Positions 30,001 to 60,000 of a stretch of DNA of 64,000 nucleotides are shown here, in pieces. A program made the position numbers. Every line of letters starts with the position of its first letter. Position 1 is the first letter of the stretch. The stretch comes from Candidatus Obscuribacteraceae bacterium. Its GTDB lineage: Bacteria > Cyanobacteriota > Vampirovibrionia > Obscuribacterales > Obscuribacteraceae. The stretch covers positions 32,001 to 96,000 of the forward strand of contig JBGAHS010000007.1 in the NCBI GenBank assembly GCA_044226015.1, written 5' to 3'.

Positions 30001-33000
30001 GCACAGTTTTGTCGTCACCACCGGTAATGGCAGTCTTTCCTGAGACTGCGCAGGCTGTCACTACCCCATCGTGTCCCACCAATTCTTGCAATTGTTGCCC
30101 CGATGAGAGATCCCAATATCTTGCGGTCTTGTCTTCGCTTGCTGAGAGTGCATGCGTGTTATCATCGCCAAATGCTAGCGATTTCAGCCAACCGATGTGC
30201 CCATTGATACGACGAATTTCAGTCAGATCTTTCACGCTAGTTGTACTTGCTGCTGGTGTCACAGACGGTATCATTGCCGTTTGATCGCTGCCTGCTGTTT
30301 TGACCTCAGGAACGGGACTACTGCTTGAAGTTGTTCCAGTGCTTGTGCTGCTGTCTGTAGCAGGAGTAAGGGAGCCACTTCCTGTCGCCGACGCAGCTGA
30401 GCTGCCAGTTGCCGCTGAAGAATCAGTGGCGGAGGTTGCACCGGCAGTAGTACCCCTCGGATTGTCAAAGTCGTCGCCGTTTTTGGCTTCAGTTTTCTCG
30501 CCTGCTGAACCTGCAGCACTCGGAGTGCTACTTGCGGGAGTGGCTGGGGGAGCGGCTACAGCTGCTGTCTCTCCTGTGGCTGGCGGCGGGGATGCTGGAG
30601 CTGTGGTGCCGGTTGCCGTGGCAGGTGTGGTGCTGGTTGCAGCAGCAGTTGAGCTTGAACTCGCACTCGGCAACTGATTAATGCGCTGTACAATCTTATC
30701 CGCTTCGTCATTCTTATTTTGCTTTCTATAAACTTTTTCGAGCAATGAGAGGCTTTGCTTCAGCATAGATTGTCCACTTGCAAGCTTCTCTGCTTCCGAG
30801 ATTGCTTCTAAGAGATTCTTCTCTGCCCCGACATAATCGGCGTCGTTGAACATCGAGTTGCCCATGTCCTGGTAAGTTTTCCAAATAGCATTTTGTGCTT
30901 GGGCCGGAATGCTAAATGCCAGCGGCAAAAGTGATAAGGTCATTGCTAATACACAAAGTGGCTTATTCACTCGCTTTGCAAAAAGTTTGATTGACATACA
31001 TTTTTCCAATCGTGCTGAGATTTCAATTCAGTGTTTAGGGCTGCTCGTAAGAAAAGCTGATTTCTGAGCCTTCTGTGTTATACCAGGGTGTTTTGAAAAT
31101 GCCGTTTTTCATTATTTCTCCGTACACGGCAAAGATGCATTGTTCCGGACCGACATTCGCTTCTTCAAGTAAGGGCGCCGTCCACTTTCGCAGTGTCAGA
31201 ATGCGTGGTGCCGCCCCTGTTATAACCCAAATAGGATGACCCAATTTGAGGAAACTCCTTATCTTGGGCTCCCAATGTCGGTGTTGGCGAAAATTGCCGG
31301 TGTCCATTTCCAGAAGTACTCGACTGGGAAGATTGCCCCCAAGAGAAAATTGAATGGTTGCATCTGACTGCTCTTCCATAGTTTCTGGCGTGTTTGACAG
31401 CTCGCGCCAAAACTCGCGTCCCGAAGACCATTTGAGCGCATTTATCGAACCCGTCTTTTCTGCCTCTTCCAGCTTAAGTCTTATGTCCACCAGTCGCAGA
31501 AAGTGCTCTTTATGGTAAAGATGGGGCGGTCCTGTTGGAACTGATTCCCAGGAGATGCCTTTGCTTTGTTCTAAAACTTTTGCGCCAGCTGTGCTCAAAA
31601 AATAAATCAGCTCGGGTCTTCCGCGCCCTTCCATTCTGCCTGAAGTGGCAGCGCCCATATAGCCATATTGTTGAAGTCGGCGCAGCCTCTTGCGTGCTGT
31701 CTCATAACTGATGTCTGGAAAGCATAAGCTAGCAAGTTGGCTACTACTTATAGTGCGATGGTGAAAGAGTTCTTCCAGAGCAGCCAGGTCGCGCTGCATC
31801 AAGACGAGATTCTTCTTTTTGGGCTTCGGTCGAACCGAATTTTTTAGGAGCCCCTTTGGGTCGATGCTTAGCGCCGTTTCGTCCATCGCAAGTGTCCTGC
31901 AGGTACTCCGTTAATGTACCCCGAAATTCACCCTTTCACGTTCGTTTTTTCGAACGCTTTATATTTCAGCTAAGCTTTGAAAAAGAAACGAGACAGCTTT
32001 TCGGCTGCCTCGCTTGCATAGTCTTTGCTTCCTTATTGCTCTACGCCAGCCTTGGGCTTCTTGTTTGGAACACCAAACTGAGAGAGGTCGGCATGCAGGC
32101 TTGTAACTGGTTTTCTGGCAGCAGCAGCCTGGTTGGGCATTTGAGGTGCCTGAGGCATTTGCGGCATCTGTGGCATTTGAGGCGCCTGCGGCATCTGCGG
32201 AGCCTGTGGCATCTGAGGAGCCTGCGGCATACGCGGACCATGCTCTACCTGGGGCATGAGCATTTCTTCTTGTGCCATCTGAGGTGATGGAGGCATTTGA
32301 GGTGCGTGTGGCATCTGAGGAGCCTGCGGCATCTGTGGTGCCTGTGCGAAAGGTACGGCTTGAGGCATTGGGATGGCTGGAGCTACTGCGCCAGTTGGAA
32401 ATGGTTGTGCTTTGGCATCAGCTGCTGGTGCTGCTGCTTCTGCGCCCACAAACTTTCCGCATTCTTTGCAGAAGCGACCCTTACCAGATTGTTTGCCACA
32501 ATGTGGGCAAGCTCGTTGTGTCGTAGTAGGACCCTGTGCTGGCATCGAAGCTGCAGCTGCAGCTGGAGCTGGAGCCGGAATCTGAGCCGGAGCAGCCGGA
32601 ATCTGAGCGGGCGCAGGTCCTGCCATCGCTGCTGGTGCGGTGCCTGCTATGCCCATCGCGGGTATCGGCACCGGCGCTGGTGCTGGAGTCAATGGTATTG
32701 ACACCGGTGCAGCTGAACCAGGAAATGCTGGTTTGCTGCTCGCTTGTGGCTCTGGACTTCCTGTGTTGAGTATTACGGCACTGGTAGATAGTGTTGCCTG
32801 ATCTGGCGCCTGTGCATTTGCAGCGGCAGCGTTTGATGCTGCTGCCATAGCTGCATCGAGAGCGGCATTGGCGGCGGCTTTTGCAACTGGTGCTGCGACC
32901 CCTGGTATGACGGCTCCTGGAACTGCCGATGGTACAGCGCCACCCGGAACTCCTGGTACAGGTGCCGCTGCCGATGGGTCTTGCCCGCCGCGGTTCGACA

Positions 33001-57000: not shown

Positions 57001-60000
57001 TTGGAATACCAGAGCTTCCACCACGAATATCATTAGAAGGAACGGATGGAACCCATGGCAAAAGTGTAGGAGCGCCGGTATGACCAGGCACTACTGGTGC
57101 TGCCGTCGGTCCGTCACCGGTTGCTGGCGGTGCACCTTCTTGAGCTGGCACGAAGGGGAGTCCTGTCTGGCTTCCAGCGACGATTGGACTTCTCAGTCCG
57201 AACGCTGGAGCGCCCACGAGGTTGCAACCATTGCTGGTACTGCTAGGTGCGCCCTGCGCTAGTGCAGCTGTAGGAGCAGCAATCGCGACAGTGAGTGAAA
57301 TTCCAAGAATGTTTCGAAGCAGCATTGGTACGGCCTCCTGAGCCAGTAAGTTAGTAAGGAGCGATAGTCATAGTGGTGCAACCACTACGCGTGTAACCAC
57401 GTTGTCCATAAAGGTCTTGTGTAGCCATTGCACCAGGCAATGATTGGTACGGTCCATCTGTAGACAGCTGCCCATAGGAGGCTTGTTGTCCCCAGTCATA
57501 AGAACGCGTTCCTCTATATTTGTAGCGACCCCAATCGGTCGTTGTTTGTCCGCCCCATTTCTGGGTCGGTGCGCTGGCGCTGATGCCACCACCTGGGTTG
57601 ATGTTGGTGAGCGTTACAGGCGGAGTGTAAGTGCGAGTGTTGTAACAGCCACCGCCCATCGGTCCACTAATCATGCCCGGGTCGCAACCTGGTGTTGATG
57701 GAGGAGGCGGAACTGAATAACTCGGACCAAGCTGACCTGGCATAGATTGATTTGCTGGGTCGTGGTTTAGTGTGAATGTTGGTGTGCCGAGGTGATCGGT
57801 AGGATAGTCAGGATTTTGCGGCAGCAAGGTCGGTGCACCGGTGTGCCCCGCGACCACTGGTGCCGGGCATGCGCCGTCGCCGATTGCTGGAGGACGACCA
57901 GCAGGTGCCTGAACGAATGGTGCACCGTATGATGCTCCGTTGACTAATGGCGTTCTCAGTCCGAAAGCTGGTGCTCCCGCGAGGTTGCAACCGCCGCCTG
58001 AAGAAGCCTGTTGAGCATTCGCTGGCAACGCAAGCGCCAGCGCTAGTAAGAGAATTGAACTTGTGCTCAGCTGATTTAGTCTCATCTTTGCTCCTGTTTC
58101 GTTCTCAGGTCGCTCTCGCACACCTGGACTCCTCACAAAAGTAGGACTTCTAATAATGAATGTCGTTGGGGCGATTACGCACCCTATTACGGTTTCTCCC
58201 ACTGAGACCCGAAGAGCCAGGAGGGTTCAGTGAAGGCAGGCTCGTTTAATTTTTGTCATGGCTGCCAATCTATTAATAGCTGGTCAAAGTCTGACAAATT
58301 TTTTCCGTCGCACATCCGAGCTTCAATCTGTCGCATTCGCTAAGCAAACGGTCAAAAATTTTTCACGATGTTCGCTACCACTCAGATCCTTTCGTTCGTG
58401 CAATTGTTTCGGCAGCTCCGCAGCTGGAGTATGAGAGCCGCCCCTGTCAGTTGTTGGACTAGATTTCCCTACCTTCTTATTCAAAATATTGCAATTAATT
58501 TAGGTAATCGCCGAAACGCCAGCAGCGTCCTCTTTGCATGGTGTCACTGATGCATGATTCCATATATAGTGTCAGTGTGATCCCGATAAGGATCTTCACC
58601 ACTAGTGGTGCTTTTGATTTATCAGAATCTTTCTACAAGAGAGCAATTTATAGAATGTAGATCTAAAGCCAGTCTCCCGAAACATCTTGGCAGCGACAAA
58701 TCTCCGGATTGATCTCCAGGCAAGCAATTCCAGATCTTGAGCACTATCTGTGGTGTCAGTCTCGAAAAATTTGTTTGTCATATTTGCATGTTGCCGGTAT
58801 CATAACGGCAGGAAAGGAAGGCGCCTGTGGAAAGTCAGAAAGCAGAATTTTATTTCAGTCCGGTCGACGCTCACAACGATGCTGTGAACGTTCAAGGCAT
58901 GGAAGATCTTTTTCAGTGGGCATCAGAGACGGTGGCAGATGGTCTAGATGGTCGTCAACGCCGCGCTCGTGAGCAGCAAATCAAGAGGCAAGTGCTCAGT
59001 ATCATTCACCGAAGCGCTGATAGCCAGGCGCAAGCAAAATACGTGAATGAACTTGCCTATATGCAACGCAGAGTTATTGCATTGCAAGGCGCATTGATTG
59101 ATACCAATCAAGAAGTTCTGAATCTGAAGCAAGTGGTAGTTGCTCAGTACGTAAGTCTTCAAAGAGTTCCCGAGCTTGAGGAAAAAGTCATCAAGCTTGA
59201 AACCGAAATCATGCTGCGCGACAAAAAAGCAGCTGAACAGAAGAGTATTGACGAGCAGCGTAAACAGGCTGATGAAGAGCAAAAGCGTTCTGAAGAAGGA
59301 CGTAAGCTCGTTCTTGAAATAGAGCGCAAATCGGTAGAGGAAGAGCGCAATCACATGATGAACGCTCTTGCTAAACTCAAGAAAGAGCGCGATATTCTCG
59401 ACGAATTGCTCACTGCTAACGAGACGGAAAATTCACGACTGGTAAATCTTTTGAATGAAGCACGCAAAGAAATTGAAGTGTTGAAGTCCAGAAGATGGTG
59501 GCATATGTTCATGCCATGCAAGAAATAGTTCGCACTTACTAAGTTCACTAATTTTACATCGATGCGTTGATTGCCTCATCTAAGCCCCCGCTGGATGAGG
59601 CATGTCCTTTGGAGGACTTCAAGTTTATGCATCGAAGTAAAGACAAGTTCTCTATTCTTCGGCTGAATTCGAGTTCTTTGCTTTTTTCAATTTTCCTTCG
59701 AAGCCTCGGTTGCTTGGTTCGAAATAAACAGTGCCCTGCAATTCTTCTGGAAGGCACTTCATGTCTGTGTTTGCATTCTCGTAATCGTGCGCATACTTAT
59801 ACCCTTTGCCATAACCAATGTCTTTCATCAGCTTGGTTGGCGCGTTTCTCAAATGGAATGGAACCGGGTGCTGCAGAGAATTGTGCGCATCATTTGCGGC
59901 TGCACCGTAGGCGCGATAAACGGCATTTGACTTTGGGCAATAGGAAAGCAGCACTACGAGCTGGGCAAGTGCTAATTTGCCTTCTGGCATTCCAATTAGA

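Follow-up and report, generated by a model that had tools for sequence, protein, structure and literature searches.

Does the T4SS (type IV secretion system) encoded in this part of the Candidatus Obscuribacteraceae chromosome belong to a conjugative element still on the move, or to a machine that the host has made its own, and what would such a machine carry? In the window, the whole 64,000-nucleotide stretch of contig JBGAHS010000007.1 that was analyzed, the T4SS genes described in an earlier note were found in the place claimed, every one on the minus strand (Table 1), and the Pfam labels were confirmed (Replic_Relax, E 5e-12; T4SS-DNA_transf/TraG-D_C, E 2e-15; P-loop_TraG/TraC, E 2.5e-16). 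Judged by its predicted products, the locus, here operon A, is a T4SS operon with pilin, VirB6-like, VirB3-like, VirB4, VirB8-like, VirD4, and Replic_Relax (MOBC-like) genes. In this genome the operon is interrupted between 39.9 and 49.95 kb by a block (~10 kb) of genes that are not its own.

Table 1. Operon A and associated features, with positions in the window.
Feature	Position	Strand	Evidence
R1, Replic_Relax/MOBC-like, winged helix and PD-(D/E)xK domain	31035..31886	-	Pfam, model, 162-sequence conservation
Candidate conserved element 5' of R1, core GGGGTA at 31917-31922	31909..31930	-	GGGGTA in 41/48 upstream regions
VirD4 coupling ATPase, Walker A and B intact, Pro/Gln-rich tails	32033..35176	-	PF02534, E 2e-15
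Putative VirB8-like bitopic protein	35199..35846	-	One TM segment and position; weak profile match to operon B counterpart, E 2e-4
VirB4-A ATPase, Walker A and B intact	35851..38709	-	Pfam P-loop_TraG/TraC
VirB3-like membrane protein	38678..39022	-	Size and position; matches operon B counterpart (78%, E 2e-5); no Pfam match
DUF2225 zinc-ribbon/TPR protein	39034..39720	-	Pfam and locus comparison
TGGGA..TCCC box 5' of DUF2225-VirB3-VirB4-VirB8-VirD4 block	39848..39863	.	Rank 6 of 5807
Lineage-specific insert: Rhs fragment, o160, o153, o504, bestrophin	39908..46939	.	Outside conserved system
Second DUF2225 protein, long disordered tail	46943..49324	-	Pfam
TGGGA..TCCC box 5' of second DUF2225	49392..49407	.	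Rank 11 of 5807
Giant VirB6-like polytopic protein, ~8 TM, long variable C-terminal tail	50065..54231	-	TM profile; matches operon B VirB6-like family (93.7%, E 1.8e-7)
Pilin candidate, mature part nearly invariant	54355..54783	-	13-genome alignment; no family match
o224, secreted Pro-rich protein	54835..55509	-	Short motif common with operon B b220 (84%, E 8e-6 over 32 columns)
o241, secreted protein	55481..56206	-	Locus comparison
Paired TGGGA..TCCC boxes 5' of o241	56290..56323	.	Rank 2 of 5807; score >=23 in 11/11 relatives
o327, secreted Gly/Pro-rich protein	56342..57325	-	N-terminal domain common to gene after second rpoB (99.1%, E 7e-19)
o283, o327 paralogue, first gene of operon A	57351..58202	-	Paralogy

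The VirB3, VirB6, VirB8, and pilin candidates (the last presumably a VirB2 counterpart) had no match in Pfam, NCBIfam, PDB, or plasmids; their size, transmembrane pattern, position, and homology between operons A and B fit the assignments. Among outside references for VirB6, one Enterococcus membrane protein gave no more than 1%. Five contigs of 239-562 nt from one biofilm metatranscriptome, which came without a silent control and were not counted, lay over virD4, virB8/virB4, and virB6.

On sequence comparison, operon B is a paralogue of operon A, and the DUF2225 gene precedes VirB3 both in operon A and in 8/12 operon B loci. Walker A and B are intact in both copies of VirB4. What had been reported as a frameshift of VirB4-B in this assembly is a pair of stops in frame: the two halves share one frame, and there is no net frameshift. 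The gene is split in G040. Nine VirB6-like genes had been placed elsewhere in the genome; nine is the count for the genome as a whole (3 of A-type and 6 of B-type), and six of them lie outside both operons. The orphan proteins called VirD4-like matched VirD4 models only weakly (E 1.6e-6) and, in profile comparison, did not significantly match the VirD4 of the operon. As claimed, this second, coupling-like ATPase family is widespread (96/107 genomes, 1-5 copies per genome); one pair adjoins proteins of 1421 and 4557 aa.

The conserved distribution ascribed to the relaxase, R1, was reproduced, with R1 found in 99/107 order genomes (38/39 of the high-quality ones) and nearly always as one match. 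VirB4 was likewise order-wide, with matches in 99 of the 100 order genomes of a class sample, 94 of them at the VirB4-A level; full-length matches had 71-90% identity. A tree of VirB4+VirD4+VirB8 had 11/14 splits in common with an RpoB/C1/C2 tree and no strong conflict (shuffle mean, 0.26), and the relaxase tree had one strongly conflicting split. Distribution and tree congruence therefore show vertical inheritance and, with the profile homology between operons A and B, support the earlier view of a chromosome-fixed T4SS with two paralogous operons.

The structure model of R1 (pLDDT 85) matches FokI/MarR folds and fits the MOBC architecture, an N-terminal winged helix followed by a PD-(D/E)xK domain. 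Its acidic triad (D175, 162/162 sequences; E193, 157/162; D195 as D or E, 162/162) is in register with D152/E170/E172 of TraX, in a weak alignment (E 0.0013). The relaxase is conserved, as had been proposed, and its MOBC membership is incomplete: E193 is lost in 5/162 sequences and the helix after the E-x-D strand has no Tyr (none at 199-215 in 162 sequences; the two positions where relatives have Tyr, H204/F212 here, are each occupied by His or Phe). K-x3-Y was seen in 3/3 outside Replic_Relax proteins, a wider search for such comparators having given one protein. Y181 of TraX is essential for transfer and MOBC relaxases show no covalent intermediate (PMC12857230, PMC6736028). R1 is under strong purifying selection, with a dN/dS of ~0.010-0.015 in the 3 main-lineage pairs with measurable dS. 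Its supposed linkage to virD4 holds in part: the two adjoin in 8/20 genomes, spanning several genera, and lie 1-2 genes apart in 2, and the remaining 10/20 have no virD4 within ~16 kb. The genes between virD4 and R1 were considered as mobile cargo and rejected, being ordinary metabolic and regulatory blocks common within lineages.

GGGGTA was found in 41/48 R1 upstream regions and was absent in all 5 of the R1 sequences with E193 lost, a co-loss that represents about two independent lineages. This element is a candidate SigF-type promoter (it resembles the motif in PMC2532724) or a candidate oriT/autoregulatory site. Similar sites occur elsewhere, GGGTA is sense-biased across the genome (557 versus 400), and an order-wide scan for the GGGGTA pattern did not rise above the reversed control. 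No oriT was shown, and no direct-repeat oriT was found.

The earlier interpretation stands in part, having missed a third operon, a regulatory box, and a sister-lineage system. The third operon, which is order-wide, encodes a TPR protein, a divergent second RNA polymerase beta subunit, secreted proteins, and R2, a relaxase paralogue predicted to have turned into a catalytically dead DNA binder (96/107), and a NarL-type regulator faces it. The second RpoB, found order-wide, has only 40% identity with the main copy; it exceeds the TIGR02013 cut-off when summed and keeps GDKxAGRHGNKG, NxEDA, and PSRMN; the active-centre cleft carries the changes N555G, Q557M, H958Q, D961L, D962H, and H965N, fixed in 6/6. 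The secreted protein encoded after it has an N-terminal domain homologous to that of o327.

A motif for a paired TGGGA..TCCC box was trained on five relatives, using no operon but the third. Among 5,807 promoters it ranked this genome's own third operon first and b639 24th, with the o241 and both DUF2225 sites in between (Table 1); 0.57% of genes score >=20 for the box. The o241 site was present in all 11 relatives and the DUF2225/VirB3 site in 9/12. The R1 promoter is without the box (rank 5784). Because the box ranks high and is conserved in relatives, operon A and the third operon look like one regulon. A control signal common to a putative mating machine and a second RNA polymerase subunit points to a host-run cell-contact programme.

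VirB4 matches outside the order are not sporadic: in one class family 30/30 genomes carry a VirB4 of their own, in another 1/1, and in the remaining seven class families none do (0/170). The sister family with its own fixed VirB4 operon (30/30) is probably Caenarcaniphilales. Its operon had no R1 match in 5/5 genomes and a VirD4-family match in only 1/5. A polytopic protein there matched VirB6 only weakly (6% and 1%), and small membrane proteins there gave no match to pilin or VirB3. The likeness of the s571 C-terminus to a pilin is weak (6.5%, E 0.006). One group of outside VirB4 relatives is a Solirubrobacteraceae cluster. VirB4 itself scores below all NCBIfam cut-offs and fits FATA/F-type models better than VirB4_CagE.

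No outer-membrane core (VirB7/9/10) was tied to the operons. The VirB9 family PF03524 was found in 0/5 genomes, where divergent forms are possible. The operon B lipoprotein, conserved in 97/107 genomes, was tried as a core component: its fold (27 sequences) is a helical hairpin plus an Ig-like domain. Of the listed matches, which included no VirB9/TraN, the best (top Z 9.2) were to FlaG, TarL, YcdA/YjhA, and helical hairpins of a generic kind, and an Atlas search was led by DUF4352-type proteins at <0.9. Also tried was a TrbI-like gene near operon B, which has 8 further paralogues; its domain also occurs in a genome without a VirB4 match and is not system-specific.

The genes themselves thus describe a vertically inherited system with two paralogous predicted inner-membrane modules (VirB3/4/6/8), VirD4, a triad-bearing relaxase, and a shared box. 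Our best reading, held at slightly less than an even chance, is conjugation that has been domesticated to donate chromosomal DNA in a regulated way. A conjugative element would have been domesticated in the Obscuribacterales ancestor, and its genes would now form a single regulon under host control. A signal, probably acting via the NarL-type regulator, would turn on both operons, and the second RpoB with R2 would retune transcription for a cell-contact state. The pilin and giant VirB6 proteins would make contact, and R1 would nick the chromosome, possibly in the element that precedes the R1 gene. VirD4 with VirB4-A would then drive chromosomal DNA into a cell of like kind with which contact has been made. 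Gene exchange would thus be Hfr-like and involve no mobile element; operon B, together with the orphan coupling-like ATPases, would probably serve a second channel or protein substrates. DNA donation is favoured because R1 is near-universal, retains its triad at low dN/dS, and adjoins virD4 in 8/20 genomes, because the tree is congruent, and because of the conserved upstream element, the E193 co-loss, and the shared box. It is disfavoured because R1 lacks the Tyr, in some sequences lacks E193, has the precedent of R2, is detached in 10/20 genomes, and carries no box, and because of the SigF-like element, the missing VirB9 match, and a sister operon without R1. Also in its favour, MOBC relaxases show no covalent intermediate in any case.

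A close rival, which we hold to be a real possibility, is that the system serves only protein export and adhesion, as in the rvh system of Rickettsiales or in Patescibacteria, delivering effectors to prey, hosts, or competitors, with R1 kept as a DNA-binding regulator or residual nuclease. The rvh-like layout of duplicated VirB4/VirB8 and multicopy VirB6 (PMC11077975) speaks for it, as do the second coupling-like ATPase family with its one pair beside the proteins of 1421 and 4557 aa, the dead paralogue R2, the Tyr-less R1, and the relaxase-less sister operon; it sits badly with an R1 triad kept under strong purifying selection, with Walker motifs in both VirB4 copies, with the lack of any effector tied to the system, and with a pilin whose near-invariance would not be expected of an adhesin that faces a host. 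Improbable, in our judgement, is a developmental cell-to-cell channel or envelope-remodelling device with a role like the sporulation feeding tube, in which the second RpoB marks a differentiated state and neither DNA nor effectors are the main cargo. A regulon common with an alternative polymerase subunit, a genome with at least 11 matches to the sigma-70 family, the missing VirB9 match, and the unspecific TrbI-like domain would suit such a device, which leaves the retained VirD4 and relaxase triad unexplained; no differentiated state of the order is known from the literature examined.

The view that the locus is an ICE, mobile still or in decay, or that unrelated genes have come together here by chance, is already largely refuted and very improbable indeed. 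The stops in VirB4-B, its split in G040, and the conflicting relaxase-tree split could be read that way; against them stand near-universal single copies, congruent trees, a scan of 27 window proteins that found no integrase, plasmid VirB4 matches of 20-25% identity at best with none for R1 or the VirB6 core, and fixed neighbours (oppF in 15/20, riboflavin genes in 9/12). The patchy distribution, integrase, and incongruent phylogeny of ICEs and conjugative plasmids were not what we found.

Beyond DNA donation as such, a more speculative extension, doubtful though possible, is that the host encodes a programme for mating or cell contact, with the domesticated T4SS, the tyrosine-less relaxase, and a dedicated second RpoB as one regulon. 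The alternative polymerase, with the dead relaxase as DNA-binding partner, would transcribe the programme in the donor or be delivered to the contacted cell; with the sister operon, a domesticated T4SS would go back to the ancestor of much of Vampirovibrionia. If true, free-living bacteria in the sister group of photosynthetic cyanobacteria would carry, across a whole order, conjugation machinery that is a fixed part of the core genome and retains its relaxase, and a second RpoB co-regulated with secretion genes would be an unusual form of control, swapping a core subunit and not a sigma factor. An almost unstudied order gains testable handles in nicking, the regulator-box pair, and polymerase reconstitution.

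Among known systems, rvh is a vertically inherited, order-level signature with duplicated VirB4 and VirB8 and multicopy VirB6 (PMC11077975), features found here too. Unlike rvh, the present system has no VirB9 match, keeps a relaxase, has intact Walker motifs in both VirB4 copies, has a second RpoB and a dead relaxase linked to it, and has a VirB4 closer to FATA/F-type models than to VirB4_CagE. The MPF-FATA-related Patescibacteria T4SS (PMC12102498) is similarly chromosomal and lineage-wide, with VirB3/VirB4/VirB6/pilin and no diderm outer-membrane core found; relaxases occur there in only 103 genomes and coupling proteins mostly far from virB4, whereas here VirD4 is in the operon, R1 is near-universal, modules are duplicated, and the host is a free-living diderm. 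The T4SS of Vampirovibrio chlorellavorus, with a T-type VirB4 and two of its three operons on plasmids, was proposed for prey contact (PMC4451040) and is a different system in the same class. With MOBC relaxases (TraX of pAD1-type plasmids, MobC of CloDF13), R1 has in common the winged helix, restriction-nuclease domain, and D-E-(D/E) triad in register, and differs in having no Tyr in the following helix, no direct-repeat oriT found, a dead paralogue, and the standing of a chromosomal core gene. Archaeal Ced/Ted and Thermus transjugation use chromosome-fixed, conjugation-derived parts for DNA traffic among kin, Ced/Ted importing DNA without a relaxase; the gonococcal GGI is strain-variable, and we know of no second RpoB in any of these systems. 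GGI DNA release uses a MOBH relaxase. The likeness of all three to the present system lies in conjugation-derived parts that are fixed in the chromosome and serve DNA traffic among kin. Certain actinomycetes also have duplicated rpoB genes (rpoB2 in Nocardia, rpoB(R) in Nonomuraea); the second RpoB here differs from these in its identity of only 40% to the main copy, order-wide presence, fixed cleft changes, and place in an operon of secreted proteins.

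Operon A, the window's operon for a type IV secretion system (T4SS), extends from o283 to the Replic_Relax protein R1, and its genes are listed in the table together with the related loci of the source genome (G000), in which the window is C10:32001-96000, and its relatives. The G+C content across the operon was 0.47-0.55 vs 0.47 for the contig, and no integrase was found among the 27 window proteins scanned. R1 was found in 99 of 107 genomes of the order Obscuribacterales, including 38 of the 39 high-quality ones. In a sample of 301 genomes of the class Vampirovibrionia, 99 of the 100 order genomes had VirB4 matches; 94 carried VirB4-A, the copy of operon A, and five others had only matches at the level of VirB4-B, the copy of operon B on contig C1. 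Beyond its own cluster, full-length VirB4 relatives reached at most 33% identity (1.84 billion representatives searched), plasmid VirB4s showed 20-25% identity among the matches listed, and neither R1 nor the VirB6 core had a plasmid match.

Loci of the T4SS and sequences noted beside them (L, fetched locus; C, contig)
Feature	Position	Strand	Content or remark
Operon A, upstream part		minus	o283, o327, o241, o224, pilin candidate, 1388-aa polytopic protein
Operon A, insert		minus	10 kb with second DUF2225, between the 1388-aa polytopic protein and DUF2225
Operon A, downstream part		minus	DUF2225, 114-aa membrane protein, VirB4, 215-aa bitopic protein, VirD4, R1
Third operon	C11:702253-711571		TPR protein, RpoB2, secreted s571, secreted s244, R2
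Second rpoB (RpoB2)	L123:6341-10180 = G000 C11:704340-708179		Divergent beta subunit, order-wide
R2	L123:12796-13572 = G000 C11:710795-711571		Replic_Relax paralogue; no Pfam match
Sister-lineage VirB4 operon	L057-L061, L142, L143, L187-L206		Compact: two small membrane proteins, VirB4, bitopic protein, polytopic protein, histidine kinase (4 loci)
Rhs core fragment	window 41145-41648		Isolated, within the operon A insert
TadE/TadG-like pseudopilin genes	L077:18670-19875, L078:65-5772		Inserted within G000 operon B
ATPase loci	L080:5647-16431, L081:2432-16105		Coupling-like ATPases (two) and one HerA-like ATPase next to proteins of 1421 and 4557 aa
Window ORF	window 40395-40877		Shares a domain with the HerA-like protein of L080/L081
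Pilin fusion	L088:3943-6969 (G000 C1:951942-954968)		1008-aa multi-pass membrane protein, C-terminal copy of mature pilin (E 2e-28)
Giant ORF, 10,968 aa	C12:217944-250850		After a weaker GGGGTA copy
Giant ORF, 8,634 aa	C12:468004-493908		After a weaker GGGGTA copy

Gene trees were set against a reference of concatenated RpoB, RpoC1 and RpoC2, and the sharing of splits was compared with shuffles (~0.3). VirB4, VirD4 and VirB8 together had 11 of 14 splits in common with the reference (17 genomes) and VirB4-B had 6 of 10 (13 genomes), neither with a strongly supported conflict. R1 shared 9 of 17 splits, with one conflicting split that lay among long branches, and VirB6 shared 8 of 14 with one conflict. 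An earlier note had proposed that the T4SS was inherited vertically, which the order-wide presence and the three-protein tree bear out. Among 20 fetched genomes virD4 adjoined R1 in 8, was one or two genes away in 2 and was separated from it in 10, the intervening blocks consisting of ordinary metabolic and regulatory genes; oppF lay near R1 in 15.

The structural model of R1 combines a winged helix with a restriction-nuclease domain (pLDDT 85; FokI match, E 5e-4). In a weak alignment, its residues D175, E193 and D195 fall on D152, E170 and E172 of a TraX-type protein; across 162 R1 sequences D175 never varies, 157 have E193, and position 195 always holds D or E. H204 (161 of 162), placed by ungapped extension, sits at the position of TraX Y181, and F212 (158 F, 4 L) at the Tyr of K-x3-Y in three outside Replic_Relax proteins. 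The available parts of PMC6736028 and PMC12857230 describe Y181 as essential for transfer and report that a covalent intermediate was not observed for MOBC enzymes. Seven R1 pairs were compared for dN/dS, of which three were saturated; the ratio was 0.010-0.015 in three and 0.10 in one pair lacking E193. Because of these states of triad, fold, Tyr position and dN/dS, R1 is a predicted MOBC-like nuclease, yet one without the Tyr expected of a member.

A conserved element with the core GGGGTA precedes R1 in 41 of 48 sequences; one of the other seven is truncated and five are sequences without E193. In the E193-less lineages L035, L042, L046 and L047, a repeated TTGTGGCA motif replaces it. The element resembles the cyanobacterial SigF element as given in the accessible text of PMC2532724, and GGGTA upstream of genes is biased to the sense strand, with related sites also elsewhere. 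It is at least as likely to be a promoter as an oriT. Strong matches to the sigma-70 family number at least 11 in G000, and the SigB/F/G model is the nearest for two of them.

Judged from profiles, operon B is a paralogue of operon A. Matches join their VirB6-like families (93.7%, E 1.8e-7), VirB3-like genes (78%) and VirB8-like genes (48%, E 2e-4), as well as o224 of operon A and b220 of the operon B side (84%). Among 12 relatives, 8 have DUF2225 ahead of VirB3-B and 9 have riboflavin genes beside the operon; Walker A and B are intact in VirB4-A and VirB4-B. The interruption of VirB4-B noted earlier in this assembly consists of two in-frame stops, not a net frameshift, and may be an assembly error or mark a pseudogene. 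In total, G000 has three A-type and six B-type VirB6-like genes. Its VirB8-like genes number three, and a membrane protein of 1008 aa carries a fused pilin copy. The closed genome G004 is without the two VirB6 genes of operon B. A second family of coupling-like ATPases occurs in 96 of 107 genomes at 1-5 copies each. Of the further VirD4-like coupling proteins proposed earlier, what holds is a weak match to VirD4 models; the match to the operon VirD4 was not significant. Genes similar to the TadE/TadG-like ones of G000 lie next to operon A in two genomes (G004, G105) and, in G037, next to the third operon; pilin genes are duplicated in tandem in three genomes (L031, L062, L125). No VirB9-family match was found in any of the five genomes searched, and TrbI-like domains are not specific to this system. 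A conserved operon B lipoprotein, built of a helical hairpin and an Ig-like domain, and secreted Gly/Pro-rich proteins are the candidates for taking substrate across the outer membrane of this diderm cell.

A second full-length rpoB was present in G000 and in 26 of the 26 same-family relatives with any rpoB match (28 searched), in one of three genomes of another family and in none of six from other orders. Identity of RpoB2 is 40% to the main RpoB and 69-72% between order members. Its nearest solved structures are cyanobacterial, so that it stems from duplication within the lineage. Several catalytic-cleft motifs are retained, and fixed changes include N555G, Q557M and H958Q (6 of 6), at positions with a role in RNA contacts; no second RpoC1 or RpoC2 was found in G000. 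Of seven loci, five have the complete gene order of this third operon; in one it is broken, and in another a contig end interrupts it. Among paralogues of b639, which faces operon B, the TPR protein of the third operon ranks best (E 6e-34), and the N-terminus of s571 matches o327 (profile match 99.1%). R2 matches R1 over 193 columns (95.7%, E 1e-8), lacks the E-x-D strand and has a nearly invariant winged helix, and is as predicted from these features a catalytically dead Replic_Relax paralogue; it was found in 96 of 107 order genomes. A NarL-type regulator (82-86% identity) directly faces the operon in five of five relatives.

In 6 of 6 genomes, a paired TGGGA..TCCC box lies ahead of the third operon. 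The third-operon sites of five relatives were the sole training set for a matrix that, scored on 5807 upstream regions of G000, ranked the third operon 1, o241 2, DUF2225 6, the second DUF2225 11 and b639 24. Scores of at least 23 were obtained before o241 in 11 of 11 relatives and before DUF2225/VirB3 in 9 of 12, against a background in which 0.57% of genes reach 20. No scoring box stood before R1, b375 or the orphan VirB6 and ATPase genes. By this shared box, operon A and the third operon form one putative regulon.

A different VirB4 occurs in one class family (30 of 30 genomes), probably Caenarcaniphilales, and in another (1 of 1), and in none of 170 genomes from seven other families. R1 was matched in none of five sister-lineage genomes and PF02534 in one of five. 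A tree built from 106 VirB4 sequences placed the A, B and sister-lineage clades together with unnamed proteins (0.957) without fixing the branching order among them, so that a common ancestry is possible only.

We tentatively favor domesticated conjugation as the most likely reading of the system. It would involve a regulated contact state, in which RpoB2 may have a role; R1 would nick the chromosome, and VirD4 and VirB4-A would donate DNA to kin cells, while operon B and the orphan ATPases would serve a second channel or proteins. Close to this reading, and a real possibility, is that the cargo would be protein, exported with a co-opted R1. A developmental channel is less likely and on the whole improbable, and a live ICE, set beside the inheritance and the settings described here, is very unlikely.

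The literature searched, with most subscription journals and supplements outside it, contained no description of these systems under Obscuribacterales type IV secretion or Melainabacteria VirB4. It likewise gave none under duplicated rpoB in Obscuribacter or Vampirovibrionia, predation and conjugation in Obscuribacter, Vampirovibrionia T4SS or Caenarcaniphilales VirB4, the available part of PMC8600333 included. The accessible text of PMC8047818 mentions no second rpoB, and that of PMC12102498, as noted earlier, does not mention Melainabacteria. Genome-wide T4SS tables in published supplements could already include these VirB4 genes. The system is real, vertically inherited and, within the searchable literature, undescribed. 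The T4SS of Vampirovibrio is T-type and largely plasmid-borne according to the available portion of PMC4451040, and hallmarks of the rvh system are given in that of PMC11077975. Domestication of a chromosomal T4SS as such is already known; unusual here are the kept relaxase, its predicted dead paralogue and the putatively co-regulated second RpoB.
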